This document shows, in pieces, positions 369-28,076 of a stretch of DNA of 29,987 nt. The notes under the pieces are model-generated. The model was given only the letters and a program-made list of their open reading frames with translations, searched no databases and had not been told where the DNA came from. The stretch covers positions 1-29,987 of IMG/VR virus record IMGVR_UViG_3300037045_000291; one strand, written 5' to 3'. Positions within the stretch are counted from its first letter, which is position 1. Each line of letters starts with the position of its first letter. The position numbers and the translations under genes are program-made. This DNA comes from a virus. Lineage: Duplodnaviria; Caudoviricetes.

Positions 369-1229
369 CTAATTGCTATAACCCAATGAACTGATAATTT
401 CTTTTTTAGCTCTTTCTTCATACTCAAAATATTTAACTAAAGCTCTTTCTTCCAATTTGTAAAATGCCAAGAAGACCATCCACATGATTGCAATAGGCAT
501 CATTAAAATTTTATCAATATTACTATCTCCAACATCATCAGTATTCCTAATTATTGCACTTAATATTAATATGATAAAAGGTATATGAGCAAGTATCAAA
601 AACACAACAGTCTTTTTTTTAATGCTTTTCAATTTATCATGTTTATTCGAAAGAGTTAGTAAATATTGATCTTTTAATAAAATTGAGTTTACTTTTTCTT
701 CAAAGTCTTTTTGTCTCTTTAATTCTAATTCTTTTGCCAATTTTTCTTTAGTTTGCTTATCTATTATAGATTGAGCTCTCGATTCTTGTTCATATTCTAG
801 TTTCTTTTGTGTTATGTCCCTATTCTCACTTATCTTTGATTTATTATGAAAATAATTTTTAATATCATTTAATGTTTTTGGCAGAAAATCTCTTTTATTT
901 GCATCATCAATTAGAAAAGCATATGTATCTGTACCATCAAGTTGCAAACTAAGAATAATAGAGTCTTGAAACACGGGTCTTAATAGAACAGCTCCATTAG
1001 TTGTTTTAATCATCAAACAATTATTAGTAGATAATAATTTCCAATTTGCAATTGTTACAATACCATTAACAGAGATAAAGAGCTCTTCATTTTCTTGAAA
1101 AATATAAATTGCTTTCTCGCCTGTGTCATTGAACACCCACCATTCTTTATTACATAAGGTAGTTTTAATATCCAAACTTTCACTTAATCGTTTATAACGA
1201 TTAAACGTGTCCATTAAGTATGTTTTCAT
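369..1229 (-). CDS. Hypothetical membrane protein: N-terminal beta-rich domain, charged coiled-coil, two C-terminal TM helices
   Basis: 286-aa ORF with hydrophobic segments VVFLILAHIPFIILILSAII and ILMMPIAIMWMVFLAFY and a K/E/Q-rich helical middle. Confidence 0.8.
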   Translation of the reverse strand: MKTYLMDTFNRYKRLSESLDIKTTLCNKEWWVFNDTGEKAIYIFQENEELFISVNGIVTIANWKLLSTNNCLMIKTTNGAVLLRPVFQDSIILSLQLDGTDTYAFLIDDANKRDFLPKTLNDIKNYFHNKSKISENRDITQKKLEYEQESRAQSIIDKQTKEKLAKELELKRQKDFEEKVNSILLKDQYLLTLSNKHDKLKSIKKKTVVFLILAHIPFIILILSAIIRNTDDVGDSNIDKILMMPIAIMWMVFLAFYKLEERALVKYFEYEERAKKEIISSLGYSN

Positions 1230-10880: not shown

Positions 10881-11969
10881 ATGTCTAAAATACAGTCCAT
10901 TTTCGGGGCTTATGCAAACAGTTTGCAGACTATTATCGACAATAGTCTCGACCGTTTTGCTCCCAACTGGTATCCTAAGTACTTCGGCTGGGCCCCGGCA
11001 CAACAAACTCTTACTTTCACCTCGGTAGTAGGTGCAAGTCGTATTGAAGCAGCAGCTTCGATTGTCAACCGATCTTCCGAAGCTCCATTGAGGGCTCGCT
11101 CGGAACTGAGCAAATATCAGGGTGAAATTCCTGCTATCAAGCAGAAATTCTCCATGCGTGAAGGTGACTACCGTGATTTCCTTGCTCTTCAGGCATCCAG
11201 TCTTGATGAATCAGCCAAGAAAGCTCAGTTACTTGATTTCTTATTCGATGATGTTCAAAAAGCCGGAAGTGCACCACACAAGCGGTTGGATATTATGGTT
11301 CTTCAGGCCATTTCGACCGGAAAGATTTCTTTAACGGTGGATAATAATCCCGACGGTATCATCTTAAAAGAGGATTTAGACCTTTTGATGCCCTATGGTA
11401 ACAAGCTATCGGTTACATCCACTCCGGAACGTAAATGGAGCAATCCACTTACTTCAACTCCTCTTACCGACATTACGAATGTTGTCAATGAAGCCCGGCA
11501 GAAAGGTCACTCATTTGAAAAAATTCTGATGAGCATGACACAGGGGATGCAGCTATCGAAAAGCAAGGAGGTGATTGATAGTTTAATCTCATTCAATCAA
11601 CTTCAAAAAGGTGCTGCTATTGCCACATTTGCTAAGATTAACGAGTACCTGCAAGCTAATTTACTTCCACCTATCGAACTGGTGGATGAAGTCATTGGAA
11701 TTGAAAAGGATGGTATCATCAATACCTTCCGACCATGGCAGGAAGGTAATGTCGCTTTCATTCCTTCTGGTAAACTTGGAGTGATTAAAAACGCTGTTTG
11801 TCTGGAACAAATGCAACCTGTTCAGCATGTAAACTATGCTATTTACAACCGTGCATTACTCAGCAAATGGCAGGAGAACGACCCATGGGCAGAATTTACA
11901 GCTGTTGAGCTCAATGCTTTCCCTGCATTTGAAGCTATCGACAAGGTGTATATTCTAACAGTAGATTAA
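10881..11969 (+). CDS. Major capsid protein (HK97 fold, lambda gpE-like family)
   Basis: 362 aa; position in the module; GEIPAIKQK, QAISTGKI, KWSNP...PLTDI and QENDP.AEFT..E..AFP motifs typical of cap_E-type capsids. Confidence 0.88.
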   Translation: MSKIQSIFGAYANSLQTIIDNSLDRFAPNWYPKYFGWAPAQQTLTFTSVVGASRIEAAASIVNRSSEAPLRARSELSKYQGEIPAIKQKFSMREGDYRDFLALQASSLDESAKKAQLLDFLFDDVQKAGSAPHKRLDIMVLQAISTGKISLTVDNNPDGIILKEDLDLLMPYGNKLSVTSTPERKWSNPLTSTPLTDITNVVNEARQKGHSFEKILMSMTQGMQLSKSKEVIDSLISFNQLQKGAAIATFAKINEYLQANLLPPIELVDEVIGIEKDGIINTFRPWQEGNVAFIPSGKLGVIKNAVCLEQMQPVQHVNYAIYNRALLSKWQENDPWAEFTAVELNAFPAFEAIDKVYILTVD

Positions 11970-13447: not shown

Positions 13448-13903
13448 ATGGCTTTATCGTGGGGAAAACCAAAGATAGAAGTTGCACCGTATGTAGGCGG
13501 TGCTTTGCCTGCATCTCCAGCATATACTGCTTTTCCGGAAATTAGGGAAGACAGTGCACGACTTTCCACAACTAAGGGAAAGAAGCGGGAAGCAAGGGCA
13601 GAAGGTGGTGAATTAGTTGATATGTGTTACTCAAAAAACGCTTACTCTTTTGAGTGTGAGGTTTTCGTAAAGTCTGGTGATACCCGACCTATCGAAGACA
13701 ACGATGGAGTTATTGCGAATAAATACGCTGTTCGTTTAACACCGGAGGACCCGACAGCAGAGGGTTTCATCTTTGAAAAATCGCTTGTAAGCGTAGAAGA
13801 GATTTGGAGTGCTGCCGATGGAAAGCTCCTCAAATACACTTTTGAAGCACTTAAACCAACAAGCGGTAAGATGTGCAAACCATATACTGGTCAGGCTGAA
13901 TAG
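13448..13903 (+). CDS. Major tail (tube) protein
   Basis: 151-aa beta-rich protein (MALSWGKP...AEGGELVD...YTFEALKP) located before the chaperone and tape measure genes. Confidence 0.8.
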   Translation: MALSWGKPKIEVAPYVGGALPASPAYTAFPEIREDSARLSTTKGKKREARAEGGELVDMCYSKNAYSFECEVFVKSGDTRPIEDNDGVIANKYAVRLTPEDPTAEGFIFEKSLVSVEEIWSAADGKLLKYTFEALKPTSGKMCKPYTGQAE

Positions 13904-13913
13904 CCTCTTTTTT

Positions 13914-13988
13914 AGCGAGGGAGAACGATGGTTGTTCGTTTATTCCATGAGTGAGTAAAAGGTGGTGGTTCGATTCCACCTCTCGCAA
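13914..13988 (+). tRNA. Non-canonical tRNA-like element (initiator tRNA-Met-like scaffold, atypical anticodon arm; pseudo-tRNA or tRNA mimic)
   Basis: Acceptor stem AGCGAGG/TCTCGCA (1:72 mismatch, discriminator A), D-arm GAAC-GATGGTT-GTTC, T-arm GGTGG-TTCGATT-CCACC, CAT at 13946-13948. It lacks U8, A14, A21 and an encoded CCA. Confidence 0.7.
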
Positions 13989-14010
13989 CTTATTTTTTTG
14001 TAGGGTTGAT

Positions 14011-14484
14011 ATGCGTGTTGAAGAAAAAGTAGCCAAAACAATTTTCCAGGAGAAGGAAAAAATCAAAATAGGCAGTAAGGAGTACATGATAGCTCCACCC
14101 ACTACTGCCACACTTATTCAGGTGTCGAGACTGATTGCAAAATTGCCCGACATAAAGCTTGAAAACGATGAAGTGTTTTTTGGGTCACTAATGATTGCCA
14201 AAGAATGCCATATTTTGGGCAAAATAGCCGCAATTTTAATATTGGGCGTGGATAGGCATATCTTTTATCATTCCGAAAGAAAAACGCTCTTAAATCGCCT
14301 AAAAACACGCCATGCCAGAAAAGTCGATGAACTTGCCGATGTGATGCTGTTTGAATGCAAACCCAGCGAGGTGAATTCATTCATCGTAAACCAACTTTCG
14401 AGAATGGAGATTGGCGATTTTTTCGGGCTTACCACTTCCCTGTGCGAAATAAATATCCTAAGAAAAACAAGGGGAGTGGTGTAG
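14011..14484 (+). CDS. Tail assembly chaperone (gpG-like)
   Basis: Likely start is ATG 14011 (MRVEEKV), because the track's GTG at 13951 lies inside the tRNA-like element; sits between major tail and tape measure. Confidence 0.75.
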   Translation: MRVEEKVAKTIFQEKEKIKIGSKEYMIAPPTTATLIQVSRLIAKLPDIKLENDEVFFGSLMIAKECHILGKIAAILILGVDRHIFYHSERKTLLNRLKTRHARKVDELADVMLFECKPSEVNSFIVNQLSRMEIGDFFGLTTSLCEINILRKTRGVV

Positions 14485-14687
14485 ATAACGACAGTATTTG
14501 GTCACTGGTAGCAGGTGTTGCCAAAAACTTTCCTCAACTCAAATTCAACGAAATTCTTTTTGATTTAAGCTATTCCAATTTGGTGCTTTACAGTGCCGTG
14601 TTGCCAACATACGAAGATGACAACGGTGATATCGATGCCGATGACCCACGTAACAAACATCTGATAAGGAGCATGCTGTATGATTAA
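14418..14687 (+). CDS. C-terminal extension of the tail chaperone (gpGT-like), reached by -1 ribosomal frameshift
   Basis: In-frame slippery heptamer T TTT TTC at 14418-14424; the -1 frame is open to 14687 (…DNDSIWSLVAGVAKNF…SYSNLVLYSAVLP…) and overlaps the tape measure start. Confidence 0.65.
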   Translation, partial: FFRAYHFPVRNKYPKKNKGSGVDNDSIWSLVAGVAKNFPQLKFNEILFDLSYSNLVLYSAVLPTYEDDNGDIDADDPRNKHLIRSMLYD

Positions 14688-17600
14688 CGATTCCGGAAAA
14701 ATATGGTACTCAACAGGGATTGATAATTCCCAACTTCAGAGGGATGCCGAAAAAGCTAAGGGGCTTATCGGAAGCATCGGACAAAGGGCGGTTGATGAGG
14801 GTAGTCGAATAGATAATACCCTTAGTCAACTGGGAAAAGCTTTTGCCACTGTTTTCACTATTCAACAGGCAGCCAATTTTGCCCGGGAGTTAGCCAATGT
14901 CAGAGGGGAGTTTCAACAGTTGGAGATAGCTTTTACCACCATGCTCAAAAGCAAGGAAAGGGCTGATCTTTTGATGCGTGAAATAGTGGACTTTGCAGCT
15001 ACCACTCCATTTGACCTTCAAGGTGTGGCTTCGGGTGCAAAGCAGCTTTTGGCATATGGATTCACGGCAGACAGCATTCGTGATAATCTTACTATGTTGG
15101 GTAACGTTGCAGCAGGTGTTGGTTCTCAAATTGGAGATATCATCTACCTGTACGGAACGTTGAACGCTCAGGGAAAGGTTATGACCAAAGACCTGATGCA
15201 GTTTGCCGGTCGAGGTATTCCCATCTACAAAGAGCTGGCAGCCGTACTACAGGTTACTGAAAAGGAAGTGATGGACTTTGCATCTTCTGGTCAGCTTTCC
15301 TTCGCTCATGTTGAACAGGCATTCAAAAACATGGTCAGTGAATCAGGGATGTTTTATAACCTGATGCAGGAACAATCCAAATCCATCACTGGCCAGCTAT
15401 CCAACTTAGGGGATTCCATCGACCAGATGTTCAATCAGATTGGTCAGTCCTCAGAAGGTGTTATTTCGGGTGCAATTTCTGGTGCTGCATATTTGGTGGA
15501 AAACTACCAAAAGGTAGGTGAAGTGATTGGTTCGCTGGTTGCCGTTTACGGTACTTACAAAGCTGCTATCATGGTGTTTAATGTGGTTCAATCCACATCC
15601 ATCGCTTTAAGCAGGGGCTGGACAGTTGCTGAACTTGCAAAGTTCAAAGCTTTGGTACTGGTAGAAGGTGCTCAAAAACTCCTTAACAAAACCATGTTGG
15701 CTAATCCTTACATAGCAGCTACAATGGCGGTAGTTACTCTTACTACTGCTTTAACCTTTTACGCCCGGAGTGCCAAGAAAGCCCAATCAGAAACTCAAAT
15801 GCTGGGCGACATAACCAAGGAAGCTGAAAGTAACATCAAGACAGAGGTTTCAGAGTTAGAGTCTTTGCGAAAGATACTCGATGATTCCACTAAAGGCTAT
15901 TCAGACAGGAAGAAAGCATTGGATAAAATCAGGGAAATTGTTCCTGAATATCATGCATCACTCTCTACTGAGGGAGCGCTGATAAACAACAATTCCGATG
16001 CGCTGGACGGTTATGTAAAGAAACTCAAATACACCGAACAGGTTCGGATTGCTGTTGCAAAACAGGCAGAAGCACAGGAGACGCTCGATAGCTGGAAAGC
16101 TAAAAACAGGGATGTCCTTGCTGGTGCTGTTGCAAAAAAGTACGGTGGTAGGGAGAATGAAATGTTTGCAGGCGAAAAGGCTGCAATGGATATCTACAAG
16201 CGCCTTTCCGATGAAGCTCATAAATACTCACTGGTAATTGATAAGCTTCAGGAGGAGATGCTAAAGGTAACACCTGAAACATCTACTTCTTTTACAGCAC
16301 CAGAGAAGGATGATAAAAAAACCGACAAGCTACTCAATCAAATCAGGAACGAAAAGATAGAAATCGAGCGGGCCAAGGAGGATTTATACTTTAATCGTGT
16401 AGAAGCGGAACTGGAACTATTGGAAGAAGGTTCAGCCAAAGAACTGGCTCAGTTGGAGCTTAATTTTCGTCGTAAGATAACCGAAATCAATCGTCAGGAG
16501 GATGAACTTTTACAGGTATTACGCAACCATGCTAAAAAGGAATGGGAAGCAAAGGGTGGTCAGGGTACATTTAACGAAAACTCCATCACTCTACCAAAGG
16601 AACAGGCCGATGAGTTCGAACGCCTGCGGGATGCTGAAAGTAAATCTTACGAAATTGCACAGGGTGATGTTTACAAGAAACTCCTTATAAAATATCAAAC
16701 CTATGCAGAACAAAGAAAAAGCATCGAGGAGAAATTTCAAAAGGACATTGCCGAACTGACTACAAAGTTCGGAGCTGATAGTTCGGCTGTAAAGGTTGCA
16801 ACAGAACAGATGAAACAGGCACTGGATGAACTCTCTAAAGATGTTCTACAGGACAGTGGTTCGGGACTGTTGGATTTATACCTATTCGGGGATGGTACGG
16901 ACTTTATTACATCAAAAATAAAGGAGGCCTTACCCTTATTCGAGGATATCACCAAACTATCCTACAACGAGCTTTCAAAGGTTAAGGAAATCATCGGCAA
17001 AGTGACTTTTACCGACAAGCAGTTAGCACTTTTTAAAGAAGCTGGTATCGATATCGAAAAACTCAAAACAGCACTGGATGAAGCTAAAGAGTCAGCCGAT
17101 GAGATGCTGGATGTCAAGGCATGGGAAAAGGTTGATGAAATGGCCAAAAAACTTTCTGATTCACTGGGTGAATTAGGGGACTCGCTTTCTACCTTCTCAG
17201 GAGTAATGGGTGAAATCGGGAAAGCTATTTCAGGGATTTCCGGCAGTCTGGATGATGTGCTCACTTCCTTTGATAAGAACGCTACTTCAATGGATATCGT
17301 CAGTGCAGGTATTTCCGGACTTTCCACACTGCTTTCCATGATTGGAAACCAGATAGAGCAAAACAGGCAGGCTCAGGAAGAATGGAACTTAAAGATTCTC
17401 GAAGCAGCTCATAACATATCTATGGCTCGCATCGAAATGGAAGCTTATAAGGAATCAAACATCTTTGGAGTTGAGAATCCCTACGCTAAAGCGATAGCTG
17501 GTGCACGGCAATATTCTGCTGCGATTTTTGAGCTCAAATCAACCGCAAACACTCTTTCTCAGGGGAAAGTTCAAACCGGAACAAAGCAACAGCTTGATGC

Positions 17601-18537
17601 AGGAAACATCGCTACCGGATTAGGTGCGGGTGCTGCAATTGGTGCTGCTGTAGGTTCTTTCATTCCTGTAATTGGTAACTTGCTCGGAGCTGCTATTGGT
17701 GCTGTTATCGGTGGAATTGCAGGAGCTGTAACCACCAAAACAGTTCCGGTATTTGAGTCGCTGGCAAAAACCTACGGTGAGATTTTCGATAAAGATACTT
17801 TTGAGCTTAACCCTCAGATATTGGCCGATTACGACAAGCTGGATGAAGCCACCAAATCCATTGTTGATAATTGGCAGGAGATAGCCGACAAAGCAAGGGA
17901 AGCACAGGAGCAAATGCGGCAAACCTTCTCTGATCTGGCAGGAGAAATTGGCTCAATGCTGTCCGATGAATTGGTAAATGCCTTTAGAAATGGTGATGTC
18001 TTTGGAGCTGTTGATTCATTCAAAGGTAAGGTAACAACAGTAATAGAGGATATTCTATCTCAACTCATCTTTGCTCAGTACTTCGAGGGTCTGTTCAATA
18101 ATCTCGAAAAGGAGATGATGGACAGTTTCGGTTATGAAGGAGACCAAAGTATAGTAGATGATATTATCCGCTTTACAGAAGGGTATAATAGTGCATTAGG
18201 TGAGTATAGTCAAGCGATGACCACGGTTCAGGAAGAACTGGCCAAACAGGGTTTTGATATATTCTCCAACTCACGAACGGCAGCAAGTAAAGGATTTCAG
18301 TCCATGTCACAGGATTCTGCCAATGAGCTTAATGGTAGGTTTACAGCTATTCAGGCACATACTTACCAAATCTCTGAAAGCATCAAAAGCCTGCTCATAA
18401 ACAGTGCTCAATCACTAAAATACTTGTCAGGAATAGAAAATCATACCTCAAGACTGGAAAGTATAGAAAATTTTCTAAGAAGCTTAAAGTCGGGCATTGA
18501 TGACATAAACATTAAGGGGGTGTACATACGAGGATGA
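14680..18537 (+). CDS. Tape measure protein
   Basis: 1285-aa helical protein with a tape-measure N-domain (FAATTPFDLQGVASGAKQLLAYG…QFAGRGIPIY) and Gly/Ala hydrophobic segments. Confidence 0.95.
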   Translation: MINDSGKIWYSTGIDNSQLQRDAEKAKGLIGSIGQRAVDEGSRIDNTLSQLGKAFATVFTIQQAANFARELANVRGEFQQLEIAFTTMLKSKERADLLMREIVDFAATTPFDLQGVASGAKQLLAYGFTADSIRDNLTMLGNVAAGVGSQIGDIIYLYGTLNAQGKVMTKDLMQFAGRGIPIYKELAAVLQVTEKEVMDFASSGQLSFAHVEQAFKNMVSESGMFYNLMQEQSKSITGQLSNLGDSIDQMFNQIGQSSEGVISGAISGAAYLVENYQKVGEVIGSLVAVYGTYKAAIMVFNVVQSTSIALSRGWTVAELAKFKALVLVEGAQKLLNKTMLANPYIAATMAVVTLTTALTFYARSAKKAQSETQMLGDITKEAESNIKTEVSELESLRKILDDSTKGYSDRKKALDKIREIVPEYHASLSTEGALINNNSDALDGYVKKLKYTEQVRIAVAKQAEAQETLDSWKAKNRDVLAGAVAKKYGGRENEMFAGEKAAMDIYKRLSDEAHKYSLVIDKLQEEMLKVTPETSTSFTAPEKDDKKTDKLLNQIRNEKIEIERAKEDLYFNRVEAELELLEEGSAKELAQLELNFRRKITEINRQEDELLQVLRNHAKKEWEAKGGQGTFNENSITLPKEQADEFERLRDAESKSYEIAQGDVYKKLLIKYQTYAEQRKSIEEKFQKDIAELTTKFGADSSAVKVATEQMKQALDELSKDVLQDSGSGLLDLYLFGDGTDFITSKIKEALPLFEDITKLSYNELSKVKEIIGKVTFTDKQLALFKEAGIDIEKLKTALDEAKESADEMLDVKAWEKVDEMAKKLSDSLGELGDSLSTFSGVMGEIGKAISGISGSLDDVLTSFDKNATSMDIVSAGISGLSTLLSMIGNQIEQNRQAQEEWNLKILEAAHNISMARIEMEAYKESNIFGVENPYAKAIAGARQYSAAIFELKSTANTLSQGKVQTGTKQQLDAGNIATGLGAGAAIGAAVGSFIPVIGNLLGAAIGAVIGGIAGAVTTKTVPVFESLAKTYGEIFDKDTFELNPQILADYDKLDEATKSIVDNWQEIADKAREAQEQMRQTFSDLAGEIGSMLSDELVNAFRNGDVFGAVDSFKGKVTTVIEDILSQLIFAQYFEGLFNNLEKEMMDSFGYEGDQSIVDDIIRFTEGYNSALGEYSQAMTTVQEELAKQGFDIFSNSRTAASKGFQSMSQDSANELNGRFTAIQAHTYQISESIKSLLINSAQSLKYLSGIENHTSRLESIENFLRSLKSGIDDINIKGVYIRG

Positions 18538-26240: not shown

Positions 26241-28076
26241 ATGAGAAAACCTATTCTGTATCAGTTTTATTTAATTGTCGCAATTCTCCTATGTAGTTGT
26301 GAACAAGAAGTTGACCTTGCCCGATTACCCGTAGTAAGTACAACAGTAGTTTCATCAGTAACTTACTATTCAGCTCAAAGTGGTGGTGTAATTACCGCTG
26401 ATGGTGGATATGACGTAATAGCACGTGGAGTCTGTTGGAGTACCTCACCAAATCCTGACATAAAAGATTCAAAGACAGTTGATGCTGCCGGAACTGGAAC
26501 ATTTGAAAGCTCAATAGAAAACCTATTGCCAGGTACTACTTATTATTTGAGAGCTTATGCGACCAACAAAAAGGGAACATCTTACGGGTTGCAGGAAACA
26601 TTCACAACAATGGCTTTGTCGTTATCCGAAATCACCACTTCACCTGTAACATCAATAACTACTACTTCAGCCGTTACAGGAGGTGCAATTTCAATAGATG
26701 GAGGGACATCCATAACTGCACGTGGAGTGTGTTGGAGTACTTCATCAAATCCTACCATAAATGATAGTATTACTGTTGATGGGGTAGGTGCTGGAAATTT
26801 TATTAGCACACTTTCAGGATTAAAAACGGGCACTACATATTATGTAAAAGCATATTCAACAAACTCTAAAGGCACATCGTACGGCGATGAAGTGCAATTT
26901 AAAACACTATCATCAATACCGGAAGTAATAACAGCTACCATTAATTCCATAACAACTTCATCGGCAATATCAGGAGGTGAAATATTACACGACGGTGGTG
27001 AAACAGTTATTGCAAGAGGAGTTTGTTGGGGTACCTCACCAATTCCTACAACAAATAATAGTAAAACTATAACCGGATCAGGTAAAGGAAGTTTTTCAAG
27101 CATACTTTCAAATTTAAAATCCGGAACTCAATACTACATTAGGGCTTATGCAACTAATTCAATTGGAACAGCATACGGGAATGAATTAACCTTTAGTTCA
27201 TCAATAAGCTTGCCCGAACTTACTACAATTGAAATTTCAGATTTGTCATCAAGCATGGCTAAATCCGGCGGAATTATTACTCATGATGGTGGAGCTGAGA
27301 TTACTTCAAGAGGTGTGTGTTGGAGTATTACACCAAATCCAACCATAAATGATAATGTTACTGTTGATGGGGCTGGTACTGGTAATTTTTTCAGCACACT
27401 TTCCAATTTAATAGCCGGAACTAAATACTACCTTAGGGCTTATGCTTCGAATTCAGTTGGTGTTTCATACGGCAATGAAATTAAATTCTATATAATAAAT
27501 CCGGGAGAGGTTTATAATCCTATCACAGAAAGAATTTGGATGGACAGAAACCTTGGTGCAGGCCGTGTTGCAATATCGAGTACTGATGATCTGGCCTATG
27601 GCGATTTATATCAGTGGGGACGAAATTCGGATGGACATGAGAAGCGCACTTCTCTAACGACTACTATTGAAAGTATTAGTGATACTCCCGCTCATGGTAA
27701 TTTTATCATCGTAAAAAGTGGAAATTTAGACTGGCGCAGTCCTCAAAACAATTACCTGTGGAGTAAAATATATAAAATTAACAACCCTTGTCCTGAAGGA
27801 TTCCGCATACCCACAGCAGATGAATGGGAAGCAGAACGCACAAGCTGGATTAGTAATAATGCGATTGGAGCTTATGATTCTCCACTGAAATTGCCCTTGG
27901 CGGGCTATCGCTTCTACGGCACTGGTTCGCTTTTCAGCTTCGGCACTTATGGTTACTATTGGTCAAGTACAGTTCATGGTACATACGCTAAGCACCTGTA
28001 CTTTTACAGTGGCGATGCTTTCATAAACACTCTCAGCCGTTCGTACGGTTTTTGCGTTCGGTGTATAAAAGATTAG
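26241..28076 (+). CDS. Lipoprotein with four FN3-like repeats and a C-terminal Fibrobacter succinogenes major paralogous (FISUMP, C-type-lectin-like) domain
   Basis: Signal peptide II (VAILLCS-C20) followed by EQEVD; four ~97-aa repeats; WMDRNLGA…GDLYQWGR…PCPEGFRIPTADEW…YWSST…VRCIKD. Confidence 0.9.
   Translation: MRKPILYQFYLIVAILLCSCEQEVDLARLPVVSTTVVSSVTYYSAQSGGVITADGGYDVIARGVCWSTSPNPDIKDSKTVDAAGTGTFESSIENLLPGTTYYLRAYATNKKGTSYGLQETFTTMALSLSEITTSPVTSITTTSAVTGGAISIDGGTSITARGVCWSTSSNPTINDSITVDGVGAGNFISTLSGLKTGTTYYVKAYSTNSKGTSYGDEVQFKTLSSIPEVITATINSITTSSAISGGEILHDGGETVIARGVCWGTSPIPTTNNSKTITGSGKGSFSSILSNLKSGTQYYIRAYATNSIGTAYGNELTFSSSISLPELTTIEISDLSSSMAKSGGIITHDGGAEITSRGVCWSITPNPTINDNVTVDGAGTGNFFSTLSNLIAGTKYYLRAYASNSVGVSYGNEIKFYIINPGEVYNPITERIWMDRNLGAGRVAISSTDDLAYGDLYQWGRNSDGHEKRTSLTTTIESISDTPAHGNFIIVKSGNLDWRSPQNNYLWSKIYKINNPCPEGFRIPTADEWEAERTSWISNNAIGAYDSPLKLPLAGYRFYGTGSLFSFGTYGYYWSSTVHGTYAKHLYFYSGDAFINTLSRSYGFCVRCIKD
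26325..27488 (+). repeat. Four tandem intragenic FN3-like repeats (~291 nt each)
   Basis: Each copy reads GG.I..DGG......RGVCW…P…G.G.F.S…L..GT.YY..AY..N..G..YG…F; the DNA copies are diverged. Confidence 0.9.

Follow-up and report, generated by a model that had tools for sequence, protein, structure and literature searches.

A tRNA-fMet-derived element between the tail-tube and presumed chaperone genes of Bacteroidota siphophages: a candidate RNase P/RNase Z processing signal

In mitochondrial tRNA punctuation and at the MALAT1 mascRNA, excision of a tRNA-shaped structure creates the ends of the neighbouring RNAs, and in MALAT1 a stabilising structure lies upstream; both systems are eukaryotic and rely on other enzymes. 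Plant mitochondrial t-elements are tRNA-like structures with a conserved T-arm that lie beside coding regions or mRNA ends, and they have been proposed or shown to direct cuts by RNase Z and RNase P, a role that canonical tRNAs fill at other genes (Forner et al. 2007, PMC1920247). Bacterial RNase P has non-tRNA substrates, among them the C4 antisense RNA of phages P1 and P7, phage M3 RNA and operon mRNAs (PMC11143913). These cases resemble the one proposed here in that host RNase P acts on phage or polycistronic RNA, whereas none of those named in the excerpt of that paper is a tRNA-derived cloverleaf at a fixed structural-gene junction. Two further groups are phage tRNA-fMet/Met genes whose anticodon arms are altered (van den Berg et al. 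2023, PMC10264068) and Bacillus cereus tRNA-Other, a non-translating tRNA-like element proposed to act within a larger RNA, which in the excerpt of its description is chromosomal, flanks an island and has no link to a virion operon (PMC3399842). The purpose of phage tRNA genes is debated, the usual answers being codon supply and defence evasion; the locus described here would offer a third, mRNA processing.

The DNA analysed (the window, 29,987 nt at its full length) is a siphophage contig with a capsid gene at 10881-11969 and tail genes extending past the tape measure gene. In it, a tRNA-like fold with a conserved T-arm adjoins a coding region, as in t-elements. Compared with these, it lies in a phage late operon, has a tRNA-fMet origin, belongs to a series that runs from full tRNA to arm-less mimic, and is a predicted cleavage site. 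Most genes in the same position in relatives fit the altered phage tRNA-fMet/Met genes (PMC10264068, as excerpted), whereas in the window's clade there is no stable anticodon and the anticodon stem is extended. The literature titles and abstract openings searched, which cover few subscription papers, describe neither a tRNA, genuine or mimicked, at the tube/chaperone boundary nor t-elements in a phage. All in all, the element is real, selected and tRNA-derived, it likely works like a t-element, and it is not a canonical tRNA.

Table 1. Features of the window around the tRNA-like element
Feature	Position	Strand	Description
Major tail (tube) protein gene	13448..13903	+	151 aa; phrog_17745 (unknown function); AlphaFold2 fold match
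Weak terminator-like hairpin followed by a U-run	13893..13913	+	5 bp, -5.1 kcal/mol; spans the stop codon and abuts the element
tRNA-fMet-derived tRNA-like element	13914..13988	+	75 nt, A1 to discriminator A73; CCA not encoded
Acceptor 5′ strand	13914..13920	+	pairs with 13981-13987; A1.A72 mismatch, G2:C71, C3:G70
D-arm	13923..13937	+	4-bp stem including A11:U24; GG in loop
Rewritten anticodon arm	13939..13959	+	7-bp stem, 7-nt loop
T-arm	13964..13980	+	5 bp; canonical T-loop TTCGATT
U-rich trailer (leader of the chaperone gene)	13989..14010	+	22 nt
Presumed tail assembly chaperone gene	14011..14484	+	157 aa; phrog_12247 (unknown function)
T-like -1-frame ORF overlapping the chaperone gene	14355..14687	+	phrog_25685; no ATG ahead of the conserved part
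Tape measure protein gene	14680..18537	+	Pfam TMP_3; phrog_9959

The product of the gene upstream of the element has no named family by sequence, and a PDB sequence search with the tube alignment returned nothing relevant. Its AlphaFold2 model (mean pLDDT 66) matches the tail-tube chains of Sf11, YDC107, monocin and lambda gpV (best E 2e-4), and the gene thus matches a tail-tube gene at the level of predicted fold. The downstream gene, which sits between the tube and tape measure genes, is presumed to encode a lambda G-like tail assembly chaperone from gene order and the overlapping -1-frame ORF. No XXXYYYZ slip site was found near this overlap, the sequence of which is conserved across relatives. 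The nearest genome-resident relatives lie in two Paludibacter MAGs (tube identity 90-93%), and of the other 28 matches most are titled Bacteroidota and two Bacillota. Searches of the phage collection turned up no cultured annotated relative: the tube protein matched a single record, which is unannotated, and neither the chaperone nor the tube protein of the related locus L064 matched any. Further downstream (26241-28076), the window encodes a protein of the tail region that carries fn3/Ig-like domains and, at its C-terminus, a Fib_succ_major domain; such domains are known as diversified receptor-binding ends in Bacteroidota phages.

Anatomy and origin of the element

A first-pass annotation of the letters alone had described a non-canonical cloverleaf filling most of the gap between the two genes. 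Pair-by-pair verification of all stems bore out this anatomy: the gap (13904-14010) measures 107 nt, the stems lie where they had been placed, and the acceptor consists of six pairs plus the A1.A72 mismatch. U8, A14, A21, the three G:C anticodon pairs of the initiator and CCA are missing, as had been read directly from the sequence. The importance given to the missing CCA was an over-reading, since tRNA genes of the likely host mostly do not encode it: in a Paludibacter sample (30 of 45 matches fetched), 2 of 35 distinct tRNA genes encode CCA by script, or 4 of 35 if two rows read by eye are included. Of the two alternative registers proposed for the anticodon arm, the extended one is favoured over the one presenting CAT (-20.8 vs -16.8 kcal/mol).

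ARAGORN made no call at default settings and returned a sub-threshold tRNA-Met (score 98.0) when relaxed. The element thus reaches neither the ARAGORN nor the Rfam threshold for a canonical tRNA (RF00005). It has the acceptor, the 5-bp T-stem with its T-loop and the GG of the D-loop; it lacks U8/A14/A21 and a 5-bp stem with a 7-nt U33 loop and conserved anticodon. The only Rfam match was tRNA-Sec (RF01852), which scored 23.7 bits where the gathering threshold is 47 (E 1.3), and this identity was rejected, the stack being of 12 bp and not 13 and the variable loop of 4 nt and not a long arm. Folding by itself barely separates the element from chance (z -1.97, with equal stability in 9 of 200 shuffles), and it is the comparative evidence from kin, slot and parser that sets it apart. 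It scores 37 in a T-arm/acceptor parser in which 0 of 3400 shuffles reached 36, and a profile of slot tRNA-Met genes aligns to it over model positions 4-73 (E 2e-6, against 52 gaps). Searching viral sequences with its 23-nt T-arm/acceptor pattern gave 32 loci: 7 slot copies, 14 ARAGORN tRNA-Met genes and 11 others. Two marks of initiator tRNA-fMet in the element, the 1:72 mismatch and A11:U24, are named as formylation elements (PMC8576571). Because of these marks, the tRNA-Met profile and pattern matches and the comparison with a host fMet gene (L373), descent from initiator tRNA-fMet appears well supported. A tRNA 3′ fragment of the attP type was also considered and rejected; the cloverleaf is full, it is flanked by tail genes, and its T-arm is unlike that of the host fMet gene. 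When the element was folded in its context, its acceptor stem had a probability of 0.04-0.2, and two near-canonical slot tRNAs (L009, L156) had 0.00, so that this value is not diagnostic. Of three small-share DNA runs compared, X2 covers the gap with four small indels, X3 shows a 106-letter replacement and X1 did not align; none of them bears on expression.

We then compared the window with five close variants. All of them keep the acceptor, D-arm and T-arm as well as the upstream hairpin and U-run, even where the stop codon has moved. The acceptor/D/T core differs from that of the window at 2-5 of 50 positions (about 4-10%), against 38-45% at the 4-fold sites of the flanking genes, and the acceptor change is double-sided, A5:U68 in the window being G5:C68 in the kin. 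The anticodon arm is still a hairpin, with a 6-bp stem and a variable loop in the kin against 7 bp in the window; the extended register is the one that the kin keep, with two double-sided changes. Anticodon loops all differ (TATCAGT, TAATTGT, TATCAAT, CAAAAGAT; CATGAGT in the window), and CAT is absent from all five variants. An ARAGORN SeC label on the kin loci L001, L004 and L006 depends on TCA, which other kin do not have. Random decay without compensatory changes, which the first-pass annotation had named among the outcomes that would speak against it, was therefore not what the close kin displayed. A conserved core without a fixed anticodon argues against neutral decay, against decoding and against mimicry of a VapC target. 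The earlier suggestion of a decoy for VapC toxins accordingly falls away as unlikely, the anticodon arm of fMet being precisely the part that is rewritten. The substitution pattern thus shows an acceptor/T stack under apparent selection while the anticodon arm changes freely.

A conserved slot and its occupants

The family sample comprised 344 fetched loci and the window, of which 329 had both flanking genes (16 were dropped for lacking one); these had 170 distinct gaps and, at 80% protein identity, fell into 88 clusters. Since relatives were taken as the best 80 matches at most per search, closer relatives are over-represented in the sample. The slot is occupied by a tRNA or tRNA-like element in 117 of the 170 distinct gaps and in at least one member of 53 of the 88 clusters (parser null rate 0.3-0.4%), counts that are biased toward retention of the upper half because the parsers demand a T-arm and an acceptor. 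An nhmmer counter-search for broken remnants found L330 alone, decayed in acceptor and T-stem. No element was present in 35 of the 88 clusters, three of which have no gap at all. ARAGORN called a tRNA in the slot of 38 of the 88 representatives and only one outside it, over a total of 407,297 nt. Of 20 records with a completeness of at least 90%, 14 have no RF00005 match besides the slot element; one of the other six has three more matches, two have a non-slot match only and three have none. Positions in these whole records were matched to the slot loci by hand, and zeros are not to be read as absences because at least one slot tRNA (L102) was missed. By these comparisons, the slot between the tail-tube and presumed chaperone genes is conserved in Bacteroidota siphophages, a family that infects bacteria of gut and sludge. 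The first-pass annotation was right in seeing the element as embedded in the tail operon; it missed this family-wide slot, filled mostly by near-canonical tRNA-Met(CAT) or tRNA-Ser(GCT).

The geometry of the slot is tight. From the discriminator to the chaperone ATG the median distance is 19 nt, with 13-28 nt in 47 of 50 clusters, and where an ORF has been inserted and the element is intact, the element stays beside the chaperone gene in all four cases (L067, L211, L237, L261). A hairpin of at most -5 kcal/mol lies upstream of the element in 42 of 50 clusters, and in 29 of these it lies 3-6 nt before position +1. Such a hairpin is also present in 26 of the 38 representatives without a strict-parser element, and a U-run follows it in 12 of these 26 against 8 of the 42 with an element (p=0.028, a contrast confounded by AT-rich leaders and kinship). 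Sister lineages share a hairpin but differ in what comes after it: a short leader and a tRNA in L099, L101 and L105, a U-rich run and no tRNA in L100, L104, L324 and L329. Terminator and element are not strict alternatives, as the window has both the element and a terminator-like hairpin. The Bacteroidota promoter motif TAnnTTTG showed no enrichment upstream of the elements, where it occurs in 2 of 50 cases, compared with 1 in 50 control windows. At the gathering threshold, Rfam recognised only RF00005 (8 matches) in 20 loci and no family for the upstream hairpins.

Occupants of the slot, as called by ARAGORN or the parser, include fMet-derived Met, Ser(GCT), Gly and Thr tRNAs, odd anticodons and scrambled forms, tRNA identity having been exchanged in place. 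Shortened elements (54-65 nt) whose anticodon arm is deleted or truncated occur on four separate branches (L016/L230, L112, L300, L292) of a FastTree phylogeny whose deep branches are weakly supported, and one-hairpin mimics occur in L055/L057/L058/L060 and L261. In the 23 clusters with an fMet scaffold, CAT is kept in 22, U8 in 22 and anticodon-stem pairing in 114 of 115 cells. Charging or decoding is therefore still selected in most lineages, and pure punctuation is not a sufficient explanation of the slot; the majority of slot genes probably still function as tRNAs. Positions 32, 37 and 38 are identical to the host in 9, 15 and 11 of the 23, three G:C pairs are present in 5, and the host loop together with three G:C pairs in none. 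The T-stems of this set vary as freely as the anticodon stems.

Several features of the junction were noted in passing. In L009 (709-854) the slot holds tandem tRNA-like units, a degenerate one (RF00005 38.7 bits) and then a tRNA-Met (61 bits). The Gly-type tRNA of L012 (3542-3619), and likewise those of L246, L248 and L253, ends 4 nt before the chaperone ATG, and among these close kin the anticodon is TCC or ACC, or the loop has 8 nt; a 3′ cut there, if made, would leave a nearly leaderless mRNA. A family of 50-62 aa ORFs lies directly after the tube gene and before the hairpin or element (L095:2455-2616, L237:1644-1829, L247:1361-1549, L261:1186-1362, L306 and L329). Other insertions at the junction are ORFs of 496 aa (L067:1389-2879), 278 aa (L211:2544-3380) and 180 aa (L109:2787-3329, NUMOD/HNH-like by eye), and a second tail-tube-like gene is found in L250 (2996-3517). 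Two hairpins recur 25-60 nt upstream of the slot tRNA (L151, L156, L163, L166, L171, L180, L217 and others); their stems vary while purine-rich loops of the GGAAAGA and GGHAGGWNA types are conserved, with no Rfam match in the tested loci, and a protein-binding or 3′-end-stabilising motif is possible.

A candidate cutting mark and the rival readings

RNase Z processes tRNA precursors that lack CCA by cutting behind the discriminator. RNase P gauges its substrate by the T-arm/acceptor stack, measured from the elbow (PMC4919913), and this stack is kept by every reduced form. In five host genomes, RNase P RNA and RNase E/G were found in all five, and RNase Z was over the cut-off in four. We read the element, a former initiator-tRNA gene without its normal decoding arm, as a mark in cis at which RNase P and RNase Z would cleave the late mRNA, and give this reading about an even chance. 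The fixed slot, the fixed distance to the ATG, the kept acceptor/T stack, the repeated loss of the arm and the hairpin alternative lend support to a processing signal, which had been one of the two first-pass interpretations. The late operon, with no promoter motif upstream of the element, would be co-transcribed across the gap, and transcripts would read through the weak terminator-like hairpin. RNase P would cut before 13914, so that a protective hairpin would form the 3′ end of the upstream mRNA, and RNase Z would cut after 13988, giving a chaperone mRNA with a 22-nt leader. The head and tail-tube mRNA would in this way be parted from the chaperone and tape measure mRNA, allowing differing stability or translation. 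In most relatives the slot would probably be dual-use, holding a working tRNA the maturation of which also punctuates the mRNA. Extended to the family, the proposal is that Bacteroidota siphophages step down late expression by tRNA punctuation, a captured tRNA gene having been reduced repeatedly and independently to an RNase P/RNase Z mark that is interchangeable with a terminator; we hold this more tentatively, at slightly under an even chance. The 35 clusters without an element and the decayed L330 mean that the mark is dispensable, and the in-place identity swaps could come from tRNA-gene recombination instead of selection for the site. RNase P prefers U at N-1 (PMC10731613), and this preference counts against cutting, as non-canonical elements have U there less often (9 of 18) than near-canonical ones do (26 of 32). 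The slowing of RNase P by a nearby stem-loop, taken up below, likewise speaks against it.

An excised small RNA acting in trans, as a late-site counter-defence tRNA, is a rather unlikely alternative that would make nuclease-resistant replacement tRNAs of the near-canonical slot genes and decoys for elbow- or acceptor-binding host factors of the non-decoding forms. It would account for the fMet clusters that keep CAT without ever combining the host loop with three G:C pairs, since such altered arms have been proposed for nuclease-evading phage tRNAs (PMC10264068), and for the retained formylation elements (PMC8576571). It also fits the T5 tail assembly chaperone, which in Enterobacterales triggers a Schlafen nuclease, an enzyme that cleaves tRNAs in the anticodon arm (PMC13056530). 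However, the very arm that an anticodon-nuclease decoy or replacement needs is rewritten in the window's clade and deleted in L016, L112 and L300, a decoy needs neither the 13-28 nt spacing to the ATG nor a hairpin 3-6 nt upstream, and T-stems as variable as the anticodon stems make the anticodon variation nothing special. Foreign ORFs are inserted at the tube/chaperone junction in several relatives, which suits a counter-defence site, with HK97 gp15 as a possible precedent for counter-defence genes there. The excerpt of PMC11364771 does not state that such genes lie at this junction.

It is less probable still, and in our view improbable, that the RNA stays uncut and acts in cis, either as an attenuator of translation or transcription lowering chaperone and tape measure expression or as a protein-binding landmark. 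Constant closeness to the ATG (only 4 nt in the L012 cluster) and a predicted alternative pairing of the window's anticodon arm with the U-rich trailer would agree with it, as would upstream hairpins that may hinder RNase P, a stem-loop near the leader having slowed the enzyme about 10-fold (PMC10731613). Any hairpin would suffice for such a role, though, which leaves the T-loop consensus and the 7+5-bp stack unexplained, and accessibility of the start site is predicted to be alike whether the RNA is cut or uncut (0.41 vs 0.44). Pairing of anticodon with start codon was not beyond chance (n=27; total p 0.15 and 0.18, with two single positions at p~0.04 uncorrected). Least probable, and by a wide measure doubtful, is a tRNA pseudogene in neutral decay. 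The lost U8, A14, A21 and anticodon, the decayed L330 and the many relatives without an element are what it would predict; the low divergence of the core relative to the 4-fold sites and the compensatory changes in acceptor and anticodon stem are not, and for the window's clade neutral decay is largely refuted.

If the cutting mark is what we propose, these would be bacteriophage t-elements with a complete evolutionary series preserved. They would explain many phage tRNAs called 'pseudo' or mis-called as Sec or suppressor tRNAs, and would serve expression tools for Bacteroidota as small, naturally occurring cut sites of RNase P/Z. The family offers natural controls side by side: full tRNA, scrambled arm, armless form, hairpin only and nothing.

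The architecture of a tRNA before an ORF may extend beyond the tail junction. In the unrelated phages L376, L394, L406 and L380 (match at 701-723, minus strand), 9-27 nt separate the end of a tRNA-Met or odd tRNA from the ORF that follows, which in L376 encodes the terminase large subunit; a hairpin lies upstream in L406, and degenerate forms are found in L379, L386, L393 and L397.
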